Source: Thermoanaerobaculia bacterium
GTDB taxonomy: Bacteria > Acidobacteriota > Thermoanaerobaculia > Multivoradales > JAGPDF01
DNA: 64,000 bases
Direction of reading: 5' to 3'
Assembly (NCBI GenBank): GCA_017998715.1
Contig: JAGOCP010000002.1
Coordinates: forward strand, 5,429 to 69,428
Made by a program: the position numbers and the translations under genes. A model generated the notes under the pieces. The model was not told the DNA's origin, ran no database searches, and worked only from the letters and a program-made list of their open reading frames with translations. Positions 5,332-40,466 of this stretch are shown here, piece by piece. The first letter of the stretch is position 1. The number at the start of each line of letters is the position of its first letter.

Positions 5332-5652
5332 TGCCGGGCGCGGAGCCGGATCAGGCCGAAGGCGAGCAGCTCGCAGACCTCGGTGCGGCGCTCGGTGGCC
5401 GACATGCGCTCCGGCAGCAGTGGATTCGGGCGGTTCACGGGGCGAGAGGGGGCGGGTGTCAAAGCCACACTGCTGGGGTTCGGGGATTGCTGTCGGCGCC
5501 CCGGGAGTCGGGCTGCACGAAATGAATCGTGATCCGGTTTTTTCGCGTCGTCAATCATATTGATACGAGATCATGGAATTTGCGTGGCGATCGGTTCGCG
5601 AGTGCGATAGGTGGGCGATCCCTGACAGAATCAGCCTCGGATCGCCGCCCTC

Positions 5653-14528: not shown

Positions 14529-14618
14529 ACTCATATGAGTGCGGCATGCAGACTCCAGCGAAATCAATGGCTTGCGTATGAGCATGAGTGAGGTGCCGAC
14601 ATCATGCCCTCACTCATG
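14504..14618. repeat. Cluster of CCTCACTCAT / ATGAGTGAGG palindromic repeats at the 3' end of and just after the primase-helicase gene
   Basis: A 20-bp perfect palindrome at 14504-14523, a 12-bp palindrome ACTCATATGAGT at 14529-14540, and an 11-bp inverted repeat CATGAGTGAGG (14583-14593) / CCTCACTCATG (14608-14618). All are seen directly. Confidence 0.7.
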
Positions 14619-14861
14619 TCGGATGATGTTTTCAACAGAAAAAACAAAGGCTTGCAGCGAAAATATGATGATAGGTGCTCTATCCCCCATACTACGTATG
14701 GGGGTGCCACCCTGAAGGGTTGGCACCCGATCCCATACGTAACGGGGTTCTCTGCCGGGCTCCCCGAGCGTCCGGAAGAACGATCAGGCGACGACGGCCA
14801 GTACCGCCAAGCACCGGGCCGCCGTCGCCCTCCACCACCGACAGCCTCCAAGGAGACCATC
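14619..14861. promoter_or_regulatory. AT-rich structured non-coding segment (candidate origin DNA-unwinding element and/or promoter for the downstream resolvase operon)
   Basis: Local GC is about 50% against roughly 67% around it. There is an A-rich tract (cagaaaaaacaaagg...gaaaatatgatgatagg), a hairpin CCCCCATAC-tac-GTATGGGGG (14684-14704), an imperfect inverted repeat GTGCCACCC/GGGTTGGCAC (14705-14726) and a second TACGTA-centred motif. Confidence 0.35.
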
Positions 14862-22239: not shown

Positions 22240-22812
22240 ATGCAGGGCATGAGCGAGCGCGAGTACGCCGCCCGCGCCGGGCTCTCGCGCGGCGCGATCC
22301 AGAAGGCAAAGGCCGCCGGGCGGCTGGTGCTGTACGTCGACGGCTCGATCGATCCGGAGGCATCCGATGCGCGGCGCGCCGCCGCGACCGATCCGTCGAA
22401 GCAGCGCGTGGCTCCGTCGCCAACCTCGGCGCAGCCGAAGCTGAAGCCGGTGCCGAACGCCGCGCTCTCCGCGGTCGGCGACACCCTCCGGGAGCACGGG
22501 CTGCCGACGCCCTCCGGCGGCGGCGCGACCTTCCTGCAGGCGAAGACCGCCAACGAGGTGCTGAAGTCGCAGGAACGGCGGCTGAAGCTCCAGAAGCTGA
22601 AGGGCGAGCTGGTCGACCGCGCCCGGGCCGAGGCGCTGGTCTTCCGGCTCGCCCGCGAGACCCGCGACGCCTGGGTGAACTGGCCGGCCCGCGCCGCGGC
22701 GCTGATCGCCGCCGAGGTCGGGCTCGATCCCGCCGCCATGCAGAAGGTTCTCGAAGCCCATGTCCGAGCGCATCTCGACGAGCTCGCCGAGGCTCGGCTC
22801 GATCTCGGATGA
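22240..22812 (+). CDS. Terminase small subunit
   Basis: N-terminal HTH (MSEREYAARAGLSRGAIQKAKAAGRL). Sits immediately upstream of and overlaps the GpA-type large terminase. Confidence 0.65.
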   Translation: MQGMSEREYAARAGLSRGAIQKAKAAGRLVLYVDGSIDPEASDARRAAATDPSKQRVAPSPTSAQPKLKPVPNAALSAVGDTLREHGLPTPSGGGATFLQAKTANEVLKSQERRLKLQKLKGELVDRARAEALVFRLARETRDAWVNWPARAAALIAAEVGLDPAAMQKVLEAHVRAHLDELAEARLDLG

Positions 22813-24757
22813 CGACCCGATCCTGGCGTTCGACGGGGCCGCGGCGTTGTTGCGCGCCTGGGGCGGCGGGCTGAAGCCCGATCCGCTGCTCACCGTGTCG
22901 GAATGGGCCGACCGCTACCGCATGCTGAGTTCGCGGGCCGCCGCCGAGCCCGGGCGCTACCGCACCCGGCGCACGCCGTACATGAAGGACATCATGGACG
23001 CGCTCTCGCCGGGGCATCCGGCGCAGCGGATCGTCTTCATGAAGGCTGCACAGGTCGGTGCCACGGAGGCTGGAAGCTGTTTTTTGGGCTTCATCATTCA
23101 CCAGGCGCCGGGACCGGCGCTGGCGGTACAGCCGACCGTCGAGCTCGCCAAGAGGAACTCGCGGCAGCGGATCGATCCCTTGATCGAGGAGAGCCCGGCG
23201 CTGCGGGACAAGGTGAAGCCGGCCCGCTCGCGCGACGCCGGCAACACCATGCTGTCGAAGGAGTTCGCCGGCGGCATCCTGATCATGACCGGGGCCAACT
23301 CGGCGGTCGGGCTGCGCTCGACCCCGGCGCGCTACATCTTCCTCGACGAGGTCGACGCCTATCCCGCCTCGGTCGACGAGGAAGGCGATCCGGTCTCGCT
23401 CGCCGAGGCGCGGTCGCTGACCTTCGCCCACCGGCGCAAGGTTTTCCTCGCCTCGACCCCGACGATCCGGGGCTTGAGCCGGATCGAGCGCGAGTACGAG
23501 GCGAGCGACCAGCGGCGCTACTTCGTCGCCTGCCCGCTCTGCGCCACGTCGCAGTGGCTGAAGTTCGAGCGGCTGCGCTGGGAGAAGGGCAAGCCCGAGA
23601 CCGCCGCCTACGCTTGCGAGAGCTGCGACGCCGCGATCGCCGAGCACCACAAGACCGCCATGCTCGAAGGCGGCGAGTGGCGGGCGACGGCGACTTCGGC
23701 CGATCCTTCGACGATCGGCTTCCACCTCTCGGCGCTCTACTCGCCGGCGGGGTGGCTGAGCTGGGAGCGGATCGCCCGGGCGTGGGAGGCCGCACAGGGT
23801 TCGGACGAGGCGATCCGCGCCTTTCGCAACACCATCCTCGGCGAGACCTGGGTCGAGACCGGCGAGGCGCCGGACTGGCGGCGGCTCTACGACCGGCGGG
23901 AAACGTGGCCCGCGGGCACCGTCCCGGAGGGCGGCCTCTTCCTGACCGCCGGCGCCGACGTACAGAAGGACCGGATCGAGGTCGACGTCTGGGCCTGGGG
24001 CCGCGGGCTGGAGAGCTGGCTCGTCGATCATGTCGTCATCGACGGCGGGCCGGAGCACCACGCCGGCTGGGATGCGCTCGCCCAGGTGCTAGGCCGCACC
24101 TGGCCGCACGCCAGCGGCGCTGGTCTGCAGATCGCGCGCCTCGCCGTCGACACCGGCTACGAGGCGCCTGCGGTCTATGCCTGGTCGCGGCGGCAGGGCT
24201 TCGCGCAGGTCGCGCCGGTGAAGGGCGTCGAGGGCTTCAACCGGGCGAGCCCGGTGTCGGGCCCGACCTACGTCGACGTCACCGACGGCGGCCGTCGTCT
24301 CCGGCGCGGCGCCCGGCTGTGGACTGTGGCGGTCTCGACCTTCAAGGCCGAGACCTACCGCTTCCTGCGGCTCGACCGCCCGACGGCGGAGGAGCTGGCC
24401 GCCGGTGCATCGTTTGCGCCGGGCACGGTGCATCTGCCGGACTGGGTCGAGTCCGAGTGGCTGAAGCAGTTCGTCGCCGAGCAGCTGGTTACGGTGAAGA
24501 CGAAGCGCGGCTTCGCCCGGCTCGAATGGCAGAAGCTCCGCGAGCGGAACGAGGCGCTCGACACCCGGGTCTACGCCCGCGCCGCCGCCTGGATCGCCGG
24601 CGCCGACCGCTGGTCCGAGGCGCGCTGGGCCGACCTGGAGGCGCAGCTGGGGACGGGCGGCGATGATGACAAGGCCGCGCCGCCGGCCGCCGGCACGGTG
24701 CGGCCCGTCCGCCACGTGCTGCGCCGGCGCAGCGTTCGATCCAGCTACATGGGGTGA
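22760..24757 (+). CDS. Terminase large subunit, lambda GpA family
   Basis: LTVSEWADRYRMLS...MKAAQVGATEAGSCFLGFII (Walker A-like) and the C-terminal nuclease region are collinear with GpA-type terminases. Confidence 0.9.
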   Translation: MSERISTSSPRLGSISDDDPILAFDGAAALLRAWGGGLKPDPLLTVSEWADRYRMLSSRAAAEPGRYRTRRTPYMKDIMDALSPGHPAQRIVFMKAAQVGATEAGSCFLGFIIHQAPGPALAVQPTVELAKRNSRQRIDPLIEESPALRDKVKPARSRDAGNTMLSKEFAGGILIMTGANSAVGLRSTPARYIFLDEVDAYPASVDEEGDPVSLAEARSLTFAHRRKVFLASTPTIRGLSRIEREYEASDQRRYFVACPLCATSQWLKFERLRWEKGKPETAAYACESCDAAIAEHHKTAMLEGGEWRATATSADPSTIGFHLSALYSPAGWLSWERIARAWEAAQGSDEAIRAFRNTILGETWVETGEAPDWRRLYDRRETWPAGTVPEGGLFLTAGADVQKDRIEVDVWAWGRGLESWLVDHVVIDGGPEHHAGWDALAQVLGRTWPHASGAGLQIARLAVDTGYEAPAVYAWSRRQGFAQVAPVKGVEGFNRASPVSGPTYVDVTDGGRRLRRGARLWTVAVSTFKAETYRFLRLDRPTAEELAAGASFAPGTVHLPDWVESEWLKQFVAEQLVTVKTKRGFARLEWQKLRERNEALDTRVYARAAAWIAGADRWSEARWADLEAQLGTGGDDDKAAPPAAGTVRPVRHVLRRRSVRSSYMG

Positions 24758-25635: not shown

Positions 25636-27117
25636 ATGGGCATCCTCGACGCCTTCCGCCGGCGGGGTCCCGGCGGCGACCCCGCGGCCGTGCGCGCCCG
25701 GCTCGAAGGCGCGATGGCGAAGCGCCGCCTCCGCGGCTGGCAGCCGCCACTGGAGAACCTCAACTCGCTGGTCGCCTCGGGCGGCCCCAGGCTGCTCGCC
25801 CGCGCACGCGAGCTCGTGGTCAGCAACGGTTACGCCGCCAACGCCTGCGAGGCCTTCGCCGCCAACCTGGTCGGCGACGGCATCAAGCCGTCGTCGCTGA
25901 TCGAGGACGCGGAGGTGCGCGATCGCGTCCAGCGGCTCTGGCTCGCCTGGACCGACGAGGCCGACGCCGACGGGCTGACCGACTTCTACGGCCTGCAGGC
26001 GATGGTCGCCCGCGAGATGTTCGTCGCCGGCGAATGCTTCGTTCGGCTCCGCCCGCGCCGGGCCGAGGACGGCCTGCTGGTGCCCCTGCAGCTGCAGCTG
26101 TTGCAGTCGGAGATGCTGCCGTTCGAGAAGACCGAGGACCTCGGCGGCGGCCGCCGCATCCGCTGCGGCATCGAGTTCGACGCGATCGGTCGGCGGCTCG
26201 CCTACCACTTCCGCCGCCGGCACCCGGGCGACAGCACGGATCGCGGGTCTCCCATCCCTGAGATGGTGCGCGTGCCGGCGAGCGAGGTGCTCCACATCTA
26301 TCGCCCGATCGATGCCGGCCAGATCAGGGGGCTGCCGCATGTTGCTCCGGCGATGGTGCGGCTGTTCCTGCTCGACCAGTACGACGACGCCGAGCTCGAC
26401 CGGAAGAAGACCGCGGCGATGTTCGCGGGCTTCATCACCAAGACCGCTCCCGAGGAGGCGCTGCTCGGCGAAACGCAGGTCGCCGACGACGGCACGTCCA
26501 CGGCGAGCCTGGAACCCGGCACCCTACAGGTGCTGCTGCCCGGCGAGGACGTGAAGTTCTCGGCGCCGGCGGACGTCGGCGGCGGCTACGAGGCGTTCCA
26601 GTACCGGACGCTCCTCGGGGTCTCGGCCTCGCTCGGGCTGCCGTATCACCTGGTCACCGGCGACGTGCGTCAGGCCAACTACTCGAGCCTGCGCGCCGAG
26701 CTCGTCGAGTTCCGCCGCCGGGTCGAGCAGCTGCAGCACGGGGTGATCGCCCACCAGCTCTGCCGCCCGATCTGGGCGCGGTGGATGGAGGCGGCGGTGC
26801 TCGTGGGCGCCCTCGATCTGCCCGGCTACGCCTCGGCTCCGGCGCGCTGGCGCGCCGTGCAGTGGATCCCGCCGCGCTGGGACTGGGTCGATCCCTTGAA
26901 GGACATCCAGGCGCAGGTGCTGGCGATCGACGCCGGGCTGCTCTCGCGGCGGAAGGCGGTCGAAGCGACCGGCTACGACATCGAGGAGATCGACCGCGAG
27001 AACGCGGCGGACGCTGCCCGGGCCAACGAACTCGGCCTCGGCTACCGCACGAAGCCCGGCGAGACCCAGGGCGCGCGGGCGACGCCCGAGCGGACCCCCG
27101 ACACCGAAGAGGAGTAG
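25636..27117 (+). CDS. Portal protein (lambda gpB family)
   Basis: 493 aa, position after W, conserved portal blocks (LQAMVAREMFVAGECFVRLRPRR...LPYHLVTGDVRQANYSSLRAELVEFRR). Confidence 0.9.
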   Translation: MGILDAFRRRGPGGDPAAVRARLEGAMAKRRLRGWQPPLENLNSLVASGGPRLLARARELVVSNGYAANACEAFAANLVGDGIKPSSLIEDAEVRDRVQRLWLAWTDEADADGLTDFYGLQAMVAREMFVAGECFVRLRPRRAEDGLLVPLQLQLLQSEMLPFEKTEDLGGGRRIRCGIEFDAIGRRLAYHFRRRHPGDSTDRGSPIPEMVRVPASEVLHIYRPIDAGQIRGLPHVAPAMVRLFLLDQYDDAELDRKKTAAMFAGFITKTAPEEALLGETQVADDGTSTASLEPGTLQVLLPGEDVKFSAPADVGGGYEAFQYRTLLGVSASLGLPYHLVTGDVRQANYSSLRAELVEFRRRVEQLQHGVIAHQLCRPIWARWMEAAVLVGALDLPGYASAPARWRAVQWIPPRWDWVDPLKDIQAQVLAIDAGLLSRRKAVEATGYDIEEIDRENAADAARANELGLGYRTKPGETQGARATPERTPDTEEE

Positions 27118-27120
27118 AGC

Positions 27121-28104
27121 ATGCGATCCTGGTACGCGATCCGCGCCCGCGCCGAGGGCGCGGAAGTCTCGATCTATGACGAGATCGGTGCCTACGGCGT
27201 CTCGGCGAAGAGCTTCCTCGACGAGCTCGGCGCGCTGCCCGACGACGGCGCGCTGACCCTGCGGCTGAACAGCCCGGGCGGCTCGGTCTTCGACGCGGTG
27301 GCGATCTACAACGCCCTGAAGCGCCACGCCGGCCCGGTCAGCGTCTGGATCGACGGCATCGCCGCCTCGGCCGCCTCCTACGTCGCCATGGCCGGCGACG
27401 AGGTGGTGATGCCGGAGAACGCCTTCCTGATGATCCACGACCCCTCGGGCGTGGTGTACGGGACGGCGGACGACATGCGGGCGATGGCCGAGGCGCTCGA
27501 CAAGATCAAGGGCAGCCTCGTCGCCGGCTACGTCGCGAAATCCGGCGGCGCCGAGGACGACATCGCCGCGCTGATGGCGAAGGAGACCTGGCTCGCCGCC
27601 GCGGAGGCGGTCGAGCTCGGCTTCGCCGACCGGCTTGCCGAGCCGGTGCGGATCGCCGCGCGGTTCGACATCGCGCGGTTCCGCAACGCGCCTCCGGCAC
27701 TGGTCGACGCCACGGCCGAGATCGGCGAGGCCGAGGACGACACTGCCGATGATGAGGCCGATCCGCCGGCGGGCGATGCCGAGGACGACGGCGCGGGCAT
27801 GGACGCGGTCGATCCCCCGCCGCCCGAAGCACGCGACCCGGTCTCGGCCTCCGCCGCGATCCGCGCCGAGGCGCTCGCGCATGCCGCCGCGGTGATCGAC
27901 CTTTGTGCGTTGGCCGGCCTCCCGCTGCAGGCGCGGCGGTTCTTGGAGGCCGGCGCCAGCCTCGACGAGGTGCGCGCGGCGCTACTGGCCGCAAGGGCCG
28001 ATGCCACCCCGGAGGTCACCGCCCTCCATCCGCAACCGGGCCGCTCCGCCGACGCCCGGCCCTGGGGCGAGGTGATCGCCCGCACCTTCAAGCCGAGAGG
28101 ATAA
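27121..28104 (+). CDS. Head maturation protease, ClpP/S49 family, with a C-terminal scaffold-like acidic/Ala-rich region
   Basis: LRLNSPGGSVFDAVAIYNALKRH...IDGIAASAASYVAMAGDEVVMPENAFLMIHDP is a ClpP-like Ser protease core. Confidence 0.85.
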   Translation: MRSWYAIRARAEGAEVSIYDEIGAYGVSAKSFLDELGALPDDGALTLRLNSPGGSVFDAVAIYNALKRHAGPVSVWIDGIAASAASYVAMAGDEVVMPENAFLMIHDPSGVVYGTADDMRAMAEALDKIKGSLVAGYVAKSGGAEDDIAALMAKETWLAAAEAVELGFADRLAEPVRIAARFDIARFRNAPPALVDATAEIGEAEDDTADDEADPPAGDAEDDGAGMDAVDPPPPEARDPVSASAAIRAEALAHAAAVIDLCALAGLPLQARRFLEAGASLDEVRAALLAARADATPEVTALHPQPGRSADARPWGEVIARTFKPRG

Positions 28105-28110
28105 TCCAAC

Positions 28111-28476
28111 ATGCCCACGCTCACCGAAGGCCGCCATCCGGGCGGCTTTCTCGTCTGGGAGGCCTTCCGCGACTACTGCCGCGAGGTCGTCACCATCGAC
28201 ACCGGCACGCTCGAGCCCGGCACGGTGCTCGGCAAGGTCACCGTCGGCGGCAAGTATGTCGCCCACGACCCGGACGCCACCGACGGCTCCGAGACCGCGG
28301 TCGCCGTGCTCTGGGGCAAGGCCGACGCCAGCGCCGGCGACGTGCCCGCCGTCGCGCTCGTCCGCGGCCCCGCCATCGTCAACCGCCACGATCTGGTCTT
28401 CGCCGGCACGCCGAGCGAGCCCGAGATCACCGCCGCCCATGCCGCGCTCGCGGTCGCGGGCATCATCGTCCGCTAA
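28111..28476 (+). CDS. Head decoration protein (gpD-like)
   Basis: 121 aa, between the protease and major capsid genes. Composition resembles decoration proteins. Confidence 0.65.
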   Translation: MPTLTEGRHPGGFLVWEAFRDYCREVVTIDTGTLEPGTVLGKVTVGGKYVAHDPDATDGSETAVAVLWGKADASAGDVPAVALVRGPAIVNRHDLVFAGTPSEPEITAAHAALAVAGIIVR

Positions 28477-28489
28477 GGGAGACCCGCAC

Positions 28490-29503
28490 ATGGCCAGCAT
28501 GGACATCTTCGAGGGCGACGCCTTCTCGATCATCGAGCTCACCCGGGCGCTCGAGAACATCCCCTTCAAGCCGGCGACGCTGTCGGGCTCCGGCCTTTTC
28601 GGCGACCGAGGCGTGCGCTCGCGCACGGTGGTGATCGAGAGCCGCGACGGCACCCTGTCGCTGATCCCGTTCTCCGAGCGCGGGTCGGCCTACGACCAGC
28701 AGGTTGCGGAGCGGCGCGACGTGCGCGCCTTCGTCTGCCGCCAGTTCAAGAAGCAGGACGTGATCTGGGCCGCCGAGATCCAGAGCGTCCGGGACTTCGG
28801 CTCCGAGAGCGCGCTGCAGCAAGTGCAGACCGAGGTCGCGCGGCGCCTGGGAAACCTGCGTCGCGACGCCGAGGCGACCTTCGAGTACCATCTCCTCAAC
28901 GGCATCCAGGGGCTGGTCAAGGACCCGAAGGACGGGGCGACGGTGGTGAACTACTTCACCGAGTTCGCCATCACGCCCGCGACCGAGGTCGACTTCGACC
29001 TCGACAACGCCTCGCCGGCCTCGGGGGCGCTCAGGAAGCGCTGCCAGGCGCTGATCGAGGACGTCGAGGCGAGCATGGGCGGGCTCGCGACGGGCGCCGT
29101 GCAGCTCCGCGCCGAATGCGGCTCGGCGTTCTTCGCCGATCTCGTCGCCCACAAGGAGGTGCGGGAGACCTACCTCAACACCGCGGCCGCCGCCGATCTC
29201 AGGAGCCGGGTCGCCGACGAGGTCAGCTTCGGCGGCATCAGCTTCCGCCGCTACCGCGGCAACGCCGCCTTCGGGGTGCCGGCCGACAAGGCGTTCTTCT
29301 ATCCCGAGGGCGTCGACGGGCTCTTCGAGATCTACTACGCCCCGGCCGACACCTTCGAGACGGTCAACACCCTCGGCCTGCCGCTCTACGCCCGGGCGAT
29401 CCCGGACCGTGAGCGCGACGAGTGGGTGCGGCTGGAGATCGAGAGCAACCCGCTGCCGATCTGCACCCGGCCGCAGGTGCTGCGCTCGGCGCGGCGGACG
29501 TGA
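28490..29503 (+). CDS. Major capsid protein (lambda gpE-like, phage_cap_E family)
   Basis: MASMDIFEGDAFSIIELTRALENIPFKPATLSGSGLF... is collinear with E-type capsid proteins. RBS AAGGGAG precedes the ATG. Confidence 0.9.
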   Translation: MASMDIFEGDAFSIIELTRALENIPFKPATLSGSGLFGDRGVRSRTVVIESRDGTLSLIPFSERGSAYDQQVAERRDVRAFVCRQFKKQDVIWAAEIQSVRDFGSESALQQVQTEVARRLGNLRRDAEATFEYHLLNGIQGLVKDPKDGATVVNYFTEFAITPATEVDFDLDNASPASGALRKRCQALIEDVEASMGGLATGAVQLRAECGSAFFADLVAHKEVRETYLNTAAAADLRSRVADEVSFGGISFRRYRGNAAFGVPADKAFFYPEGVDGLFEIYYAPADTFETVNTLGLPLYARAIPDRERDEWVRLEIESNPLPICTRPQVLRSARRT

Positions 29504-32438: not shown

Positions 32439-34043
32439 ATGGACCTCGGTGGCCACAGGTTTGACCCGGAGAGCGGCGACCTCTTCACGGGCGGCGGAGA
32501 AGCCATCCCGTTGAAGCGGCAGGCCCGCGCGCTGATGCAGGCGCTTGCAGCCGCCGAGGGCCGCGTCGTCTCGAAGGACCATTTGATGGATGCCGTCTGG
32601 CCGGATGTGACGGTCAGCGAGGATTCGCTTTATCAGGCCGTCGCTGAGGCAAGGCGGGCGCTTGGCGCGAATGGGTCCGAGATCATCAGATCGGTGCCGC
32701 GCCAGGGCTATCTTCTGGATGCGACGGGGGCCGGTGCAGGCAAGATCAGGCGATGGCCTGCGATGGCCGGGCTTGCGTCATTCGCCGTGATCTGCGTTGT
32801 CGTCGTCTGGTCGCAACGGCAGATGCCGTCCGACGATACCCGGCATCCGGTGATTGCGGTCCTGCCATTCGAGGCCGTGACCGGTGACGAGACCTGGCAG
32901 CGCCGTGGCGCGGGGCTGTCCGCTGAAATCGCCACGGAGCTTGCGCGCAACGACTGGCTGGATGTCGTCGCGCCAGAGGCGACCGAGACGCTGGCGGGCT
33001 CCACCTTGCCACCGGCGGCCGAATCCCTTGGGGCGAGATTTCTTCTGGCGGGTACGCTGGCAGCCGAGGATGGCGCGCTGAGGGTGTCAGCGCGCATGAT
33101 GGATGCCGAGACAGGCAAACTCATCTGGTCGGATCGCTGGAACCGCGACGAGACGGGCTTTCTGGATCTCGAGGCGGATGTTCTCGACCGGATCGCAGGT
33201 CCTCTGGGCGGTGCGTTGACCGGTGCGATCGCCCGGGCCGAGCTGGCCAGTTCACAGGCAAGGCAACCCGGCTCGCTTGATGCCTACGACCATTTCCTGC
33301 TGGGGCTCGAGGCGAAGCACCATTGGAACCGCGAGGGGTTCACGCTTGCAACGAGGCATTTCAAACGGGCCATCGCGCTCGATCCGGAGTACGCAAAGGC
33401 ATGGTCGTTCCTGTCGCTCAACCTCAGCTTTCTGGCGCTGGAAGCGGCATCGCGGGAAGAACGCCAGACGTTGTGGCAAGAGGCCCGCGACGCGGCAGAG
33501 CGGGCCTATGCGCTGGATCCGGACGATCCGGAGGTTCTGTGGCGCGTCGCGCGAGAGCGGGGCGCGCAGGGTGATCTCGAGAATGCAGCACGAATGCTGC
33601 GCCGGTCGGTGGAACTGGCGCCGGGCAATGCCGACGTGCTGATGGTTGCCGCATGGACCAGTCACTACGCGGGGGTGCGGGGTGACGAACCGTTGACCTG
33701 GGCGCGACGGGCGCATGAGCTGACGCCGATACGGCCCGCGAAATATACCATAAGCCTTGGGCTCGCGGCATTTTCATCCAGGGATTATCGGCTGTGCGTG
33801 GAGACCTTGCGGAATGCGCCGCGCTCGCCCGAGGTCCTGGCCCATCTGGCCGCCGCAGAGGCGCTTCTGGGAAATGTCTCCGAGGCTAGAGAGGTAGCCA
33901 GATTACTTCGGGAGGCGCGTCCCGATTTCGTGATCGATGATATGTTCGGGCCGGTCGGGTTGGACGGATTTGGCGATCTGGAAGATCTTCGGCAAGGTGC
34001 GGCGCTCGCCGGCGTGCCTGTCAGTCGCGCGGAAAGCATCTGA
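32439..34043 (+). CDS. CadC/ToxR-like membrane-anchored winged-helix (OmpR-C type) transcriptional regulator with a C-terminal TPR domain
   Basis: N-terminal trans_reg_C-like domain (HRFDPESGDLF...VVSKDHLMDAVWPDVTVSEDSLYQAVAEARRAL...VPRQGYLL), a single TM helix (MAGLASFAVICVVVVW), and TPR-like repeats to the C-terminus. Confidence 0.75.
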   Translation: MDLGGHRFDPESGDLFTGGGEAIPLKRQARALMQALAAAEGRVVSKDHLMDAVWPDVTVSEDSLYQAVAEARRALGANGSEIIRSVPRQGYLLDATGAGAGKIRRWPAMAGLASFAVICVVVVWSQRQMPSDDTRHPVIAVLPFEAVTGDETWQRRGAGLSAEIATELARNDWLDVVAPEATETLAGSTLPPAAESLGARFLLAGTLAAEDGALRVSARMMDAETGKLIWSDRWNRDETGFLDLEADVLDRIAGPLGGALTGAIARAELASSQARQPGSLDAYDHFLLGLEAKHHWNREGFTLATRHFKRAIALDPEYAKAWSFLSLNLSFLALEAASREERQTLWQEARDAAERAYALDPDDPEVLWRVARERGAQGDLENAARMLRRSVELAPGNADVLMVAAWTSHYAGVRGDEPLTWARRAHELTPIRPAKYTISLGLAAFSSRDYRLCVETLRNAPRSPEVLAHLAAAEALLGNVSEAREVARLLREARPDFVIDDMFGPVGLDGFGDLEDLRQGAALAGVPVSRAESI

Positions 34044-34089: not shown

Positions 34090-34512
34090 ATGCCCACCAC
34101 GCGCGAAACCATCCTCTCGGCCCTGCACGCACTCTTGCAGACCCAGCCTGCGCCCGTTCTGCGCGGCGAGGTCTTGCCCGAGCGCGTGCCGGCCGCGGGT
34201 CTCCTCATCCTGCGCGACGGCGACCCGGGCGAACCGGCGGTGACGCTCTCGCCGCTCCGCTACCACTACCAGCACCGCGCCGAGGTCGAGGCGGTCGTCC
34301 AGGTCGGCACTGGGCGCGACGCCGCCTTCGATGCGCTCACCGCCGGCGTTGGCACCGCGCTCACGGCCGACCGCACGCTCGGGGGCTTGTGCGACTGGGC
34401 CGAAGCCGAGGCGCCGCGGCCTATCGACCTCGCGGTCGACGGCGCGGCGACGCTGAAGGCCGCGGCCATCCCGATCGTGCTGCACTACGCGAGCGCGGAC
34501 CCGCTCGGCTAG
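34090..34512 (+). CDS. Putative tail terminator / head-tail connector protein (GTA gp8-like position)
   Basis: 140-aa ORF directly upstream of the major tail gene. Weak recollected similarity to DUF3168-type proteins. Confidence 0.45.
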   Translation: MPTTRETILSALHALLQTQPAPVLRGEVLPERVPAAGLLILRDGDPGEPAVTLSPLRYHYQHRAEVEAVVQVGTGRDAAFDALTAGVGTALTADRTLGGLCDWAEAEAPRPIDLAVDGAATLKAAAIPIVLHYASADPLG

Positions 34513-34537: not shown

Positions 34538-34948
34538 CTACGCCACGGCCTCGGCGGAGACCTCGGCCAGGACCTCGCCCATCGTGACCACGGGCGTTGC
34601 GCCTCCGATCATGTTCGCGAGATTCTCCTTGATCCACGCCAGCGAGCGGTCGTGCGCCGCCTTGGCGTTGTCGGCGGTGTCGAAGAGGCTGATCGAGCCG
34701 CCGCCACCGCCCTCGAGTTGCATGATGTAGTAGGCCCTGAACCCGGGCTGCTGCTTCAGGATCGGCGCGAGGCCGGTCTCGGCGAGCCGCCGGGCCTCCT
34801 CGACATTCTGCATCTGCGGGAAACTGCGGATCACGGCATACATGACGCTCTCCTGCTGAACGCAGGCGACGAGAAGGCCGCGCCTGCCCGCCAAGTCTAC
34901 ACCCGACTCGGCCGGCTCCCTACCGACAACTCCGAAGGACACCGACAT
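34538..34948 (-). CDS. ABM-domain (antibiotic biosynthesis monooxygenase-like) protein (cargo gene)
   Basis: MYAVIRSFPQMQNVEEARRLAETGLAPILKQQPGFRAYYIMQLEGGGGGSISLFDTADNAKAA is a typical ABM ferredoxin-like fold sequence. Confidence 0.65.
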   Translation of the reverse strand: MSVSFGVVGREPAESGVDLAGRRGLLVACVQQESVMYAVIRSFPQMQNVEEARRLAETGLAPILKQQPGFRAYYIMQLEGGGGGSISLFDTADNAKAAHDRSLAWIKENLANMIGGATPVVTMGEVLAEVSAEAVA

Positions 34949-35881
34949 GGCACGTGCACAGGGGGCGCGGGCGCAGATGGCGCTCGCGTTCGAGACGGTC
35001 TACGGCATCCGGCGGGCGGCTACACCCGGGTGCCGTTTGTCAGCACCTCCCTCGGCTCCGAGCAGCCGCTGATCAGCTCGGAGCTCCTCGGCTACGGCCG
35101 CGACCCGCTGGCGCCGATCAAGGACGCGGTCACCGCCGATGGCGACGTCGTCGTGCCGATCGACGCCGAGGCCTTCGGCTTCTGGCTGAAGGCGGCCTTC
35201 GGCGCCCCGACCACGAGCGGCACCGGCCCCTGGACGCACGAGTTCCGCTCCGGCGGCTGGACGCTGCCGTCGCTGTCGATCGAGACGGCGATGCCCGAGG
35301 TGCCGCGGTACGCGATGTACTCCGGCTGCGTGCTCGACCCGCTCAGCTGGCAGCTGCAGCGCTCGGGGCTGCTGACGGCGACCACGCGGCTGGTGGCGCA
35401 GGGCGAGGCGGTGGCGACGACGACGGCCGCCGGCACCCCGGCGGAGCTGGCCCTGAAGCGCTTCGGCCACTTCAACGGCAGCATCACCCGCAACGGCACG
35501 GCGCTCGGCAACGTGGTCTCGGCCGAGATCACCTATGCCAACAACCTCGACCGCATCGAGACCATCCGCAGCGACGGCCGCATCGACGGGGCCGACCCGT
35601 CGATCGCGGCACTGACCGGCCGGGTCGAGGTGCGCTTCGCCGACAGCACGCTGGTCAACCAGGCGATCGCCGGCGACCCCTGCGAGCTCGAGTTCGCCTA
35701 TGCGCTGCCGTCGGGCGAGAGCTTCACCTTCACGATCCACGCCGTCTACCTGCCGCGGCCGCGGATCGAGATCGCTGGCCCGCAGGGCGTGCAGGCGACA
35801 TTCGACTGGCAGGCCGCCCGGGACCCGGGGCTAGGCCGGATGTGCACCGCCACCCTCATCAACGACATCGAGGAGTACTGA
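34947..35881 (+). pseudogene. Major tail protein, reading frame broken after about 21 codons by a 1-nt deficit in a C run near 35008-35015
   Basis: N-terminus MARAQGARAQMALAFETVYGI is in frame 0 (stop at 35067). The remaining 290 aa (GGYTRVPFVSTSLGSEQPL...TATLINDIEEY) are in frame +2. Inserting one C (ATCCGG to ATCCCGG) restores ...YGIPAGGYTRVPF... Confidence 0.6.
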
Positions 35882-35883
35882 CC

Positions 35884-36321
35884 ATGCTGAGGCTCGACCT
35901 CACCGCGGAGCCGCGCTGGCTCGATCTCGGCCACGGCGTGCGCATCCGCGTGGCCTCGCTTACCACTGCGTTGATGGTGGCGGCGCGCAGCGACGCCGCC
36001 ATCGAGGCGCTGCCCGCCACCGCCTCCGACGAGGAACGGGCGCTGGTCTTCGCCAAGGCAATCGCGCGGCGGGCGGTGACCGACTGGGAGGGCGTCGGCG
36101 ACGCCGACGGCAGCCCGACGCCGGTCACGCCCGAGGGCATCGACGCGCTGCTCGAGGTCTGGCCGATCTTCGAGGCATTCCAGGCGGCCTTCGTCTCGAA
36201 AGGCCTGCTGCTGGATTCGGAAAAAAACGTCTCCGCGCCCTCGCCGACTGGCACTTCGGCGGGGGCGATCGCTACTGCGCGGCCTGCGGCCAAGCGTGCC
36301 CGGACTGCCCGGCGCGGCTGA
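35884..36321 (+). CDS. Tail assembly chaperone (lambda G / GTA gp10 analogue), zero-frame product
   Basis: 146-aa acidic protein between the major tail and tape-measure genes. Contains the slippery heptamer A_AAA_AAC at 36222-36228. Confidence 0.7.
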   Translation: MLRLDLTAEPRWLDLGHGVRIRVASLTTALMVAARSDAAIEALPATASDEERALVFAKAIARRAVTDWEGVGDADGSPTPVTPEGIDALLEVWPIFEAFQAAFVSKGLLLDSEKNVSAPSPTGTSAGAIATARPAAKRARTARRG

Positions 36322-36548
36322 ACCGGCCGGCGACCTTCGAGGGCTGGCAAGTCTGGGACATGGTGGGCCGCCTCGGCGGCCAACTCCGCGTCATCCCCGG
36401 CGCGGTGATCGGCTGGGACATGGGTGCGGCGCTGGCTCTCGCGGCGGCGCTCGGGATCGAGCCAATGACCGCGGCCGAGCTGCTGCCGGAGATCGAGGCG
36501 GTGATGGTCCGCCGAACCAACGAAGCGATCGGAGACGGCCATGGCTGA
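35884..36548 (+). CDS. Tail assembly chaperone -1 frameshift fusion product (lambda GT / GTA gp10.1 analogue), predicted by a -1 slip at 36222-36228
   Basis: The -1 frame is open from the heptamer to 36548 and encodes ...KKRLRALADWHFGGGDRYCAACGQACPDCPARLNRPATFEGWQVWDMVGRLGGQ...GDGHG. It ends 7 nt into the tape-measure gene, as in G/GT arrangements. Confidence 0.55.
36222..36228 (+). promoter_or_regulatory. -1 programmed ribosomal frameshift slippery heptamer AAAAAAC (X_XXY_YYZ)
   Basis: Zero-frame codons are GAA AAA AAC (E K N). Re-pairing in the -1 frame gives AAA AAA and continues into a 106-codon open extension. Confidence 0.6.
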
Positions 36549-38697
36549 AAAGCGTGTCAGCGTCCGGCTCGCCGTCGTCGGCGGGCGCGAGGTGCGGGCC
36601 GAGCTCGAGGGCGTCGGCGAGGCCGGCAACCGCGGCTTCGGCCGGCTCGGGCGCGAGATGGAAGCGGCGAACGCCCGGCTCGCCGCCTTCTCGGCACGAG
36701 TGAAGATCGCCACAGCGGCGGCCATCGCCGCGGCGGCGGCCTCCGGCATCGCCATGGTCCGCTCCGGACTCGCCACCGTCGATGCGCAGGCAAAGCTCGC
36801 GCAGTCGCTCGGCACCACGGTCGCCTCGATCCAGGTGCTGGAGCGCGCGGGCGAGCTTGCCGGCGTCGCGATGTCCGGCATAGAGCAGGCGACCAAGGAC
36901 CTGACCCGGCGGCTGAGCCAGGCCGCCTCCGGCGCCGGGCCGGCTGCGGAGGCGCTCGGCCGGCTCGGGCTCTCGGCCTCGGAGCTGTTGGCGCTGCCGC
37001 TCGACGAGCGGGTCGGCCGGATCAATGCGGCGATCGCCGACTTCGTGCCCGTCGCCGAGCGCGCCGCGGTCGCCGGCCAGCTTTTCGGCGAGGAGGGCTC
37101 GATCGCAATTCGCGCATCGACACCGCGACGCTGCGCCAGGCGACCCAGGACGTCCGCGACTTCGGCGTGGTGGTGTCGGAGGCCGACGCCGACCGCATCG
37201 AGCGGGCGAACGATGCCATTTCCCGGCTCGGGCTGATCTGGCGCGGGCTCTCGAACCAGCTGGCAGCCGCGGCCGCGCCGGCGCTCGAGGCGGTGGCGAA
37301 CGCGATGGCGGCGCTCGCCCGCACCACCGGTCCGCTCGGGATCGCGATCCGCGGCCTCTTCGACAACGTCGGCCGGCTCGCGGCCTATGCCGCGACCTTC
37401 GCCGGCATCATGGCCGGGCGCTGGGTCGCCGGGCTGGTCGCCGCCGCCGTCTCGGTGCGCGGCCTCGCCACCGCGCTCGTGGTGCTGCGCGGCGCGCTGA
37501 TCCGGACCGGCATCGGCGCGCTGATCGTCGCCGCCGGCGAGATGGTCTACCAGTTCGGCCGGCTGGTATCTGGCGCCGGTGGCTTCGGCGAGGCGCTGTC
37601 GCTGCTCGGCGACGTCGCGTCCGAGGTCTGGGAGCGGATCAAGCTCGGCGGCCGGTCGCTCGCCCTATCGCTGCAGTCGGTCTGGGCGACGATCGAGGCC
37701 GGCTGGCTGACGGCGCTCTCGCGGATCCAGCGCAGCTGGGCCGACTTCCTGCATGCGGCGACCGGTGGCATCGCCCGGATACCCGGCATGGAGGATGCGA
37801 CGCTCGCCTTGAGCGAGGCGGCGATCCGTGCCGGCTCGGCCTTCTACGAGACCTCGGCCGCGGCCGGCGAGGCGAGCGCCCGGGCCGACGGTCTCGCCGC
37901 CTCTGCCGCTGCAGCAGCCAACGCCGCCACCGCGCCGCTCGCCTCGCTCCAGGCGCTGCGGGACGCGGTGAAGGGCTCGGCCGAGGCGGCGGAGACGGCG
38001 CTCGGCGGGGCCACGGTCGCGGCCGAGGAGTTCGGCGGCGCGGTCGGCCAGGCTGGCGGCGCCAGCGCGGCGGCGGCGCCGGCGGTGGCGGAGGCGCCCG
38101 AGGCGGCGAAGTCGGGCTGGGAGCGCGCGACCGAAGCGGTGCGCGACTATGCCGACAAGGCGAAGCAGACCGGCGACGGGATCGGCGAGGCGCTCATCAG
38201 TGGCTTCCGCGGCGCCGAGGATGCTGTGGGCGAGTTCGTCAAGACCGGCAAGCTCGGCATGCGCGACCTCGTCACCTCGATCCTCGCCGATCTCGCCAAG
38301 GTCTCGGTGCGGCGCTTCGTGCTGGCGCCGGTCGCAAATGCGCTATCCGGCGTGCTCGGCAGCCTCGGGCCCGCCTTCGCCAGCGTGCTGCACGCCGGCG
38401 GTGTGGCTGGAGCCTCGGCGCCGCAGCGAATGGTGCCGGCACTCGCCTTCGCCGGGGCGCCGCGTCTCCATTCCGGTGGCGTCGCCGGCCTCCGCCCCGA
38501 TGAGGTGCCGGCGATCCTGCAGCGTGGCGAGCGGGTGCTGAGCCGGGCGGAGACCCGGGCCTTCGAGCGGGCGCGGGCCGACGGCGGCGTCACCGTCAAC
38601 ATCATGACCAGCGACGCCGAGAGCTTCCGCCGCTCGCGCACCCAGGTCGCGAGCGACATCGCCCGGGCGGTCGCCTTCGGACGTAGAGGGATGTGAG
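36541..38697 (+). pseudogene. Tail tape measure protein with an apparent -1 frame break near 37100-37120
   Basis: Frame 1 ORF 36541-37236 (...AGQLFGEEGSIAIRASTPRR...) and frame 0 ORF continuing to 38696 (...RIDTATLRQATQDVRDFGVVVSEADADRIERAND...). One extra C near CGCGCATCGAC reconnects them as ...EEGSIAIRAIDTATLRQ... Ala/Gly/Leu-rich helical composition is typical of tape-measure proteins. Confidence 0.65.
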
Positions 38698-39325: not shown

Positions 39326-39675
39326 ATGAGGAGCCCGGTTTCGTCGCCGGCGTCTTGCGCGACCTCGCCGCGTCGACCGCAGCGATCCTCGCCGCCTGGG
39401 GTGCGCTCGGCGGCGCCACCAATGCGCTCACAACCCGCATGCGGCTGCGCGATGCGGTCCGCCACATCCTGCTCGGCGGCCTCATCGCCGCCGGCATGGG
39501 CAGCTTCTCGATGGCGCTCGTCGCCCGCTGGCTCGGGCTGCCGCCCGAGGCGGTGCCGGCCGGCGGCGCCGCCGGCTCGGCCGCCTACCTCGTCGGCGTG
39601 TTCGGCCCGGCGGTGATCGAAGTGACGCTCGCCCGCATCCGCGGCCTTCGATCCGGGGACGGCCCCGATGCGTGA
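39322..39675 (+). CDS. Putative holin (two predicted TM helices)
   Basis: 117 aa. Hydrophobic stretches ILLGGLIAAGMGSFSMALVARWLGL and AYLVGVFGPAVIEV. Directly upstream of the endolysin gene. Confidence 0.5.
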   Translation: MNEEPGFVAGVLRDLAASTAAILAAWGALGGATNALTTRMRLRDAVRHILLGGLIAAGMGSFSMALVARWLGLPPEAVPAGGAAGSAAYLVGVFGPAVIEVTLARIRGLRSGDGPDA

Positions 39676-39798
39676 GCTCATCGGCCTCGCGGCTCGGCTG
39701 CGCTGCGGCGACGCCGATCCGTGCCGCCTCTTCCGTCACCGGATGCGGGTCGGCCTCGCCGTCGCCGCCCTGGTCCTGCTCCTCTCGCTGCTCAGGTA
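39667..39798 (+). CDS. Small single-TM membrane protein (43 aa; holin partner or spanin-like)
   Basis: MRELIGLAARLRCGDADPCRLFRHRMRVGLAVAALVLLLSLLR. Below the ORF-track size cut-off, found by hand translation. Confidence 0.3.
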
Positions 39799-39806
39799 AT
39801 CTCTCC

Positions 39807-40466
39807 ATGATCATGACCGACCGGGGGCTATTGGCCCTCACCCGGCACGAAGGCATCGTGCCGGCTCCCTATCTCGACGTGAAACAGGTCTGGACCTTCG
39901 GCGTCGGCCACACGGCGGCGGCGGGCGCGCCCGATCCCGCCCGGCTGCCGCGCGGCATGCCGGCCGATCTCGACGCCGGCATCCGCGAGGCGCTTCGGCT
40001 GTTCCGCGTCGACCTCGGCCGCTACGAGGCGGAGGTCCTGCGCGCCGTGACCGTGCCGCTCGCGCCCCACGAGTTCGATGCGCTGGTGTCCTTCCACTTC
40101 AACACCGGCGCGATCGCCCGGGCGGCGCTGACAAGGGCCCTCAACGCCGGCGACCGGGCCGGTGCGGGCGCGGCGTTCATGAACTGGCTGCGACCGGCCA
40201 GCCTGCGCCAGCGTCGCGAGGCCGAGCGCGATCTCTTCCTGCACGGGCGCTACCCCGAGGGGCCAATTCCGGTCTGGGCCGCCGATGCTCACGGCGAGGT
40301 CGACTTCTCGCGGCCGGTGCACCGGTTGACCGAGCCGCAAGCGCTGGCGCTGCTGCGGTCCGCGCCTGCAGCCGAACCGGCGCCAAAGGTCGCGGCCGCC
40401 TCCCTGCCGGGCCGCTGGCTCGCCGCGCTGCTCGCTTCCCTTTCCGCCGCCTTCCAACGGAGCTGA
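39807..40466 (+). CDS. Endolysin, GH24 phage lysozyme family
   Basis: LALTRHEGIVPAPYLDVKQVWTFGVGHT matches the EG..L.AY.D..G.WTIG.GH lysozyme motif with the catalytic Glu. Confidence 0.8.
   Translation: MIMTDRGLLALTRHEGIVPAPYLDVKQVWTFGVGHTAAAGAPDPARLPRGMPADLDAGIREALRLFRVDLGRYEAEVLRAVTVPLAPHEFDALVSFHFNTGAIARAALTRALNAGDRAGAGAAFMNWLRPASLRQRREAERDLFLHGRYPEGPIPVWAADAHGEVDFSRPVHRLTEPQALALLRSAPAAEPAPKVAAASLPGRWLAALLASLSAAFQRS

Follow-up and report, generated by a model that had tools for sequence, protein, structure and literature searches.

We analysed a stretch of 64,000 nucleotides (the window) taken from contig JAGOCP010000002.1 (positions 5,429 to 69,428, forward strand) of GenBank assembly GCA_017998715.1, which is assigned to a Thermoanaerobaculia bacterium; all positions below are those of the window. 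Within it is a gene for a putative phage tail assembly chaperone that contains the slippery heptamer A_AAA_AAC and is followed, in the -1 frame, by a long open extension reaching into the tape-measure gene. The layout of the locus and its comparison with relatives make it very probable that the two frames encode a G/GT-type tail assembly chaperone pair produced by programmed -1 ribosomal frameshifting, within a siphovirus-like prophage that has distal tail genes like those of a gene transfer agent (GTA). The features of the locus are as follows.

34652-35881, + strand: tail tube (major tail) gene, directly upstream of the chaperone gene (Pfam Phage_tube_2, E = 1.2e-51; phrog_290)
35884-36321, + strand: putative tail assembly chaperone, G-like short form, 145 aa plus stop (phrog_313, E = 1.5e-28)
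36222-36228, + strand: slippery heptamer A_AAA_AAC, in the phase of the zero frame and conserved in relatives
36229-36235, + strand: spacer GUCUCCG from heptamer to hairpin, 7 nt (6 to 7 nt in relatives)
36236-36267, + strand: candidate stimulating hairpin of 12 bp (5' arm, 36236-36247; loop, 36248-36255; 3' arm, 36256-36267)
36228-36548, + strand: -1 frame extension, T-like part, 106 codons plus TGA, predicted to be reached by frameshifting only
36276-36308, + strand: Cys4 motif C-x2-C-x3-C-x2-C (YCAACGQACPDCP) in the -1 frame, conserved across extensions
36390-36545, + strand: DUF7697/phrog_11212 part, the C-terminal half of the extension (PF24752, E = 2.9e-25; phrog_11212, E = 3.5e-24)
36541-38696, + strand: tape measure gene (phrog_8462), split in two frames (36541-37236 and about 37113-38696)

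The zero-frame chaperone open reading frame (ORF) runs from the ATG at 35884 to the TGA at 36319-36321. Within it, a run of seven A residues (A7; 36221-36227) forms most of the heptamer, which lies in the X_XXY_YYZ phase of the chaperone ORF (GAA AAA AAC). The -1 frame starts at the CGT at 36228 and runs without a stop through 106 codons up to the TGA at 36546-36548, which ends 7 nt past the tape-measure ATG at 36541 (overlap ATGGCTGA). Its translation contains YCAACGQACPDC, with Cys codons at 36276, 36285, 36297, and 36306, and the conceptual fusion of the two parts is 221 aa long (115 + 106). A first-pass annotation, made from the letters of the DNA, had reported the chaperone ORF, the heptamer, the 106-codon frame with its CxxC...CxxC segment, the 7-nt overlap, and a fusion of roughly 221 aa, and all of these are correct in the sequence. 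The start codon of the tail tube gene is uncertain, since both GTG 34652 and TTG 34718 are in frame. AAAAAAC occurs four times in the window, which is 70% G+C, compared with an expectation of 0.35, and none of 100 shuffles reached four copies. Because an open -1 frame is only weakly informative in G+C-rich DNA, comparative evidence is needed to show that this frame is coding.

The slippery site and the hairpin downstream

For this comparison, 160 related loci were chosen solely by a peptide within the extension; genomes and viral contigs supplied 80 each. In essentially all of the 161 loci, the N-terminal part ends and the extension starts at the identical nucleotide and in the -1 relation, and AAAAAAC with its A7 run is present in 160 of them. 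The lone broken heptamer (locus L120, at about locus position 2995) has GAAGAAAAC instead of GAAAAAAAC, and this copy may be unable to frameshift. The zero-frame stop is likewise found at a fixed distance of 31 codons in 146 of the 161 loci. Elsewhere in these genes, AAA makes up 31% of Lys codons and GAA 50% of Glu codons, and the frequency of GAA-AAA-AAC expected from their codon usage is about 0.13. The codons 5' of the heptamer are variable (GAC GCG, GAA CAG, GAG CAG, and GAT GCG); an upstream Shine-Dalgarno-like stimulator of the kind found in dnaX was considered and rejected, as no conserved element of this type is present among them.

More distant relatives carry other heptamers at the homologous nucleotide position: G_GGA_AAC in phage RcKemmy and in four further loci (L166, L167, L171, and L172) and A_AAA_AAA in Nostoc phage Nsp-JY21. 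Viral contigs at 33 to 49% identity have either A_AAA_AAC or G_GGA_AAC. Both of the latter are known shift sites, including in the g-t genes of haloarchaeal viruses (Atkins et al., PMC5009743), and a fixed site at which one valid X_XXY_YYZ motif has given way to another is a classic signature of programmed -1 frameshifting. The existing annotation of RcKemmy gives gene 16 as a joined coding sequence (CDS) in two pieces, named "tail assembly chaperone," beside the short form (gene 15), in the same layout.

The first-pass annotation had proposed that a stem-loop or pseudoknot be sought 5 to 9 nt downstream of 36228, and a conserved 12-bp hairpin is present after a 7-nt spacer, with 36236-36247 pairing with 36256-36267 around an 8-nt loop. 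Its folding energy of -25.9 kcal/mol (z = -3.73) was not reached by any of 200 shuffles. It is the isolated hairpin alone that stands out, as folding of the whole 102 nt after the heptamer is ordinary for its G+C content (z = -1.21). Among 48 close distinct sequences, 99% of cells are paired, versus 41 to 59% in slid controls, and the changes are all one-sided, mostly C to U opposite G. Among 23 diverse sequences, 84.6% of cells are paired, versus 42 to 50% in slid controls; three compensatory pairs are found there (C-G to G-C, and C-G to U-A coupled with a Gly-to-Lys change), and the covariation score is beaten by just 2 of 500 shuffles. Synonymous variability is lowered within the hairpin: at fourfold-degenerate sites of the arms (Ala GCC twice, Leu CTC/CTT, Arg CGC, and Gly GGC/GGG), the otherwise common G-ending codons are almost never used, and the third position in the loop varies freely. 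A scan of 35800-36700 with Rfam (E ≤ 1) did not match any known frameshift element. A pseudoknot between the loop and sequence downstream (GGCAC with GUGCC near 36295) was judged by eye; the loop changes to GGUCC, and no consistent change accompanies this in the partner.

We infer the following course of events, from the shift itself and its efficiency to the partners bound. Most ribosomes would read 35884-36321 and release the 145-aa short chaperone. A minority would pause at the 12-bp hairpin 7 nt downstream, with AAA (36223-36225) read by tRNA-Lys in the P site and AAC (36226-36228) by tRNA-Asn in the A site. The two tRNAs would then slip one base back onto A_AAA_AA, and translation would resume in the -1 frame at CGU 36228, adding 106 residues before the stop 7 nt into the tape-measure gene and giving the 221-aa long form. 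By analogy with gpG/gpGT of phage lambda, the N-terminal part common to both forms would cover the tape measure protein, and tube polymerization would begin on the tape measure through recruitment of the tail tube protein by the extension; on the same analogy, neither form of the chaperone would end up in the virion. The junction peptide given in the first-pass annotation, ...SEKK-RLR, would require a slip with an empty A site. Under simultaneous tandem slippage, ...DSEKN-RLRALADW is more likely, because the A-site tRNA has decoded AAC before the slip.

The same fusion could in principle arise one step earlier, if RNA polymerase added one A on the A7 run and so produced an A8 mRNA encoding the two parts in frame. 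The site is indeed a homopolymer of seven A residues, and natural A8 and A5 DNA variants fuse the frames, which shows that polymerases are liable to slip on this run at the DNA level. The frame junction lies exactly at the A run in three isolate genomes: the run is A8 in Celeribacter indicus (CP004393; L163 1838-1846) and Roseisalinus antarcticus (L164 and L165) and A5 in Rhodovulum euryhalinum (L180 938-944), where the locus is a truncated remnant without a tape-measure gene beside a gene for a HigB-like toxin. Such variants would make the long form only and are probably defective, since lambda requires the short form in excess (PMC5009743). However, homologous phages use G_GGA_AAC, which lacks a long homopolymer, at the same position, and slippage by RNA polymerase is disfavored as the main mechanism on this ground. 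Furthermore, runs of seven A residues are poor substrates for slippage by bacterial RNA polymerase compared with runs of at least nine. The conserved phase of the heptamer and the hairpin 6 to 7 nt further on make up a ribosomal layout that has no role in polymerase slippage. We thus regard transcriptional slippage as improbable.

Frame of selection and the weighing of the frameshift

The frame under selection changes at the heptamer. Among 127 distinct sequences, the most variable codon position is position 3 of the zero frame up to the heptamer and position 3 of the -1 frame from there onward. Upstream of the heptamer, the ratio of nonsynonymous to synonymous polymorphism (pN/pS) is 0.36 in the zero frame versus 2.08 in the -1 frame; over the 30 codons that follow it, the ratio is 0.25 in the -1 frame versus 1.82 in the zero frame. 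Together with the wobble phase, these values indicate that the tail of the short product is not under selection at the protein level and that the -1 frame is selected from its first codon.

This distribution of selection also bears on whether the downstream ORF could be an independent small gene with a start of its own, such as ATG 36360, with the heptamer there by coincidence. Gene callers and NCBI do annotate stand-alone ORFs of 55 to 150 aa, which NCBI names "DUF7697 family protein," and ATG 36360 (codon 45) gives a 62-aa ORF in the window. However, that ATG is exceptional among the loci, 135 of 161 of which have their first ATG at codon 65, and purifying selection in the -1 frame sets in at the first codon past the heptamer, with the invariant Cys4/WxFGxG segment upstream of any usable start. 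Matches to the extension in tblastn start at residue 1 in nearly all of the 160 loci, and in two loci the -1 frame is closed by a stop just 2 codons upstream of the heptamer. The database ORF calls start at many internal positions, a scatter typical of an ORF that lacks a true start. Homologues with their own start and without a conserved heptamer, which the first-pass annotation had named as counterevidence, are thus not what these loci present. The extension appears to have no usable start of its own, and an independent gene is highly improbable.

A database search with the conceptual fusion also returned many single-ORF matches of about 221 aa that cover 100% of it. These entries are mostly singletons in which the frames are joined at differing points, as indels located anywhere along the long two-frame overlap would produce, whereas the 145-aa split form makes up protein clusters of up to 184 members. 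Taken as evidence against a frameshift, the single-ORF homologues were rejected, as alignment shows frame mosaics or A8/A5 variants. Many of the fused proteins (among P0001-P0060) are frame mosaics, probably from metagenome assemblies that contain indels, and they could mislead homology-based annotation. A further reading is that a 1-nt indel in the A run disrupted what had been one 221-aa gene, as a pseudogene or a sequencing error. It is suggested by these matches and by the 1-nt deletion in the tape measure gene of the window, yet it is scarcely credible given the nature of the fused entries, the split A7 form shared by independent genomes and viral contigs (160 of 161 loci), and the fixed position of the zero-frame stop.

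Some observations weigh against programmed frameshifting at this locus. A_AAA_AAC is much less shift-prone than A_AAA_AAG in Escherichia coli (PMC5009743). A Pfam scan showed no sequence similarity to the lambda gpG/gpT families, and neither a sequence-profile search nor a structure search of the PDB gave a meaningful match to a solved structure. The arms of the hairpin encode conserved residues (RALA and FGGG), so that the protein explains part of the conservation of the hairpin; there are no double compensatory changes among the 48 close relatives, and covariation in the diverse set is modest. Because of the residues encoded by the arms, the case for RNA-level selection is good without being conclusive, and the hairpin is a candidate stimulator. 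Finally, the tape-measure gene has a 1-nt deletion near 37110 (37105-37115), where all close relatives have GATCGCCATGTCGCG and the window has GATCGCAAT-TCGCG. As a consequence, positions 2-188 and 208-672 of phrog_8462 match the tape measure in two different frames; of 153 related loci, 144 use a single frame throughout. This prophage may be a defective one, unless the deletion is an indel error of the assembly, and production in this host is uncertain given the broken tape-measure gene. The A7 run itself is not in doubt on comparative grounds, because 160 relatives share it.

Taken together, the programmed -1 frameshift read from the locus in the first-pass annotation agrees with the fixed junction, the near-universal heptamer, the switch in the frame of selection, the alternative heptamers, the hairpin, and the joined CDS of RcKemmy.

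The extension and its cysteine motif

In the Pfam scan, the zero-frame protein fell into no family and the extension into DUF7697 alone, without a match to the lambda-type TAC or tail_T families, and neither chaperone nor extension matched any NCBIfam model at E ≤ 0.1. Relatives of the zero-frame protein do carry PF27119 (Phage_YdaY) in precomputed database hits. An AlphaFold model of the fusion has a mean pLDDT of 80, and its top Foldseek matches in BFVD are tape-measure or tail-assembly chaperones of other siphoviruses, 236 to 277 aa long (E = 7.6e-6 to 6e-4). The TM-scores of these matches are low (0.3 to 0.4), so the similarity in fold is moderate.

The Pfam family DUF7697 (PF24752) spans residues 55-106 of the extension only. 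The N-terminal 54 residues (36228-36389), which include the Cys4 motif, are covered by no Pfam or phrog family model. This conserved first half is apparently largely invisible to annotation because it would be reachable by frameshifting only. In an alignment extending down to 34% identity, the invariant columns are R1, W8, F10, G11, G13, Y16, C17, C20, C24, C27, G39, W43, and G76. The first-pass annotation had pointed to the Cys pair as a possible metal site not known from lambda GT, and all four Cys residues are conserved across the extensions: the motif is found in 132 of 134 distinct extensions, with the spacing CxxC-x3-CxxC in 121 and CxxC-x9-CxxC in 11.

The invariant segment W-x-F-G-x-G...Y-C-x2-C-x3-C-x2-C is most likely a structural zinc knuckle, followed by a helical DUF7697 part. 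Metal binding is what the Cys4 motif alone leads us to infer, and the Pfam scan gave no zinc-finger model matching this segment. We further propose, as a possibility that falls a little short of probable, that W-x-F-G-x-G...Y-C-x2-C-x(3-6)-C-x(2-12)-C is a zinc-binding module needed for recruitment of the tube protein, which would make this a metal-dependent chaperone family of which DUF7697 is a domain fragment. A literature search for DUF7697 returned no papers, and a search for a zinc or cysteine motif in tail assembly chaperones returned nothing evidently on such a motif, as judged without opening the papers for this point.

The frameshift mechanism is textbook phage biology, and the biological surprise is small. 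New here are the assignment of a function to DUF7697, the conservation of the hairpin, and the Cys4 segment that annotation overlooks. DUF7697/phrog_11212 would be the C-terminal portion of what frameshifting adds to a tail assembly chaperone. This chaperone is widespread among prophages of Alphaproteobacteria and also occurs in some cyanophages, and DUF7697 genes should be annotated as joined CDSs. The invariant Cys4 suggests a metal site in this class of chaperones, for which none was reported in the literature searched. With an invariant heptamer, alternative heptamers in relatives, a strong conserved hairpin at a typical distance, and cultured members among the phages of cluster RcC, the family is well suited to the study of -1 frameshifting in bacteria.

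Prophage context and known systems

The chaperone pair sits between the tail tube and tape-measure genes, within a full head-tail module. Genes upstream in the structural module of the prophage are as follows.

22760-24757: large terminase
25636-27117: portal
27121-28104: protease
28256-29503: major head protein
34090-34512: tail terminator

After the tail terminator, the gene order is tail tube, chaperone pair, tape measure, and distal tail genes resembling those of the Rhodobacter capsulatus GTA (RcGTA), namely DUF2460, GTA_TIM, Phage-tail_3, and Rcc01698_C. Past the DUF2460 (g12-like) gene, this distal tail block includes an ORF (39672-40466, + strand) whose product has a phage lysozyme domain (PF00959; phrog_7 endolysin). 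A 534-aa ORF (32439-34043, + strand), located after the head genes and before the tail terminator, encodes a Trans_reg_C DNA-binding domain and TPR repeats; the unusual place of this regulator-like ORF suggests a moron-like insertion.

Besides the heptamer of the chaperone gene, AAAAAAC is found at 5537-5543 (- strand), 14639-14645 (+ strand), and 23079-23085 (- strand). The copy at 14639, downstream of a gene with an AAA_25 domain, is in phase with an ORF that has no family match; it falls in an apparently intergenic AT-rich stretch (14530-14700) and was judged to be unrelated.

A protein identical to the 145-aa chaperone is found in one database entry (P0064), labeled as a Thermoanaerobaculia metagenome-assembled genome. 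The close relatives of the chaperone are all alphaproteobacterial (Amaricoccus and Rhodobacterales), and for this reason the contig may be mis-binned, the genome being apparently alphaproteobacterial.

Among known frameshift sites, that of E. coli dnaX consists of A_AAA_AAG with a 3' stem-loop at about 6 to 7 nt and an upstream Shine-Dalgarno-like element, and the shift yields a shortened product. The locus described here shares the A-rich heptamer and the stable hairpin about 6 to 7 nt on. It differs in having no conserved Shine-Dalgarno-like element, C rather than G as the last base of the heptamer, and a product that would be lengthened rather than shortened. The heptamer AAAAAAC itself serves low-level -1 shifting in bacteria in the insAB' transposase of IS1, an unrelated protein with another biological purpose. 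Frameshifting in IS1 is among the cases cited by Atkins et al. (PMC5009743).

RcGTA has a small ORF, g10.1 (<300 nt; PMC9765227), between the chaperone-like g10 and the tape measure, and its distal tail genes DUF2460, GTA_TIM, and Rcc01698_C are homologous to those of the window. The first-pass annotation had taken gp10/gp10.1 as the same arrangement. This can be kept as an analogy only, as no Pfam or NCBIfam model ties the chaperone or the extension to RcGTA families, in a comparison made through family models rather than by direct alignment. In that comparison of chaperone, extension, and tape measure, the sole match to an RcGTA model is a weak one to RcGTA_tape at the C terminus of the tape measure.

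By its layout and function, as judged from these comparisons, the locus is a member of the G/GT-type class of frameshifted tail assembly chaperones (Xu, Hendrix & Duda 2004). The lambda pair gpG/gpGT was described by Levin et al. (1993) and Xu, Hendrix & Duda (2004, 2013, 2014), as cited in PMC5009743. It is likewise placed between the major tail and tape-measure genes, and the presumed division of labor is the same, with the common part binding the tape measure and the extension binding the tube protein. The lambda slippery site is G_GGA_AAG, whereas A_AAA_AAC and a strong conserved 3' hairpin are present here, and the Cys4 motif is, to our knowledge, not a feature of lambda. The arrangement of lambda G/GT, which the first-pass annotation had recognized, is therefore matched in layout; membership in the same sequence families is not supported, there being no detectable similarity to the lambda-type Pfam families.

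The closest described relatives, on the evidence of sequence comparison, are the chaperones of the Rhodobacter phages of cluster RcC. In a tblastn search of phage records, eleven Rhodobacter capsulatus phages matched the extension at 54 to 56% identity and two cyanophages at about 51%. Six of the eleven are listed as cluster RcC by Rapala et al. (2021; PMC8601537), who also note that a programmed frameshift is usually found in tail assembly chaperone genes. The RcC phages (RcKemmy genes 15 and 16; RcOceanus, RcDormio, RcBaka, and others), whose chaperone gene already carries a joined CDS annotation, share this level of identity over all 106 residues of the extension, along with the gene order of tube, chaperone pair, and tape measure, the nucleotide position of the shift site, the Cys4 motif, and the downstream hairpin. 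They differ in their heptamer, which is G_GGA_AAC rather than A_AAA_AAC, and in their hairpin, which has compensatory C-G to U-A differences and a Gly-to-Lys change. Furthermore, these phages are free-living and cultured, whereas the window holds a prophage with a damaged tape-measure gene.

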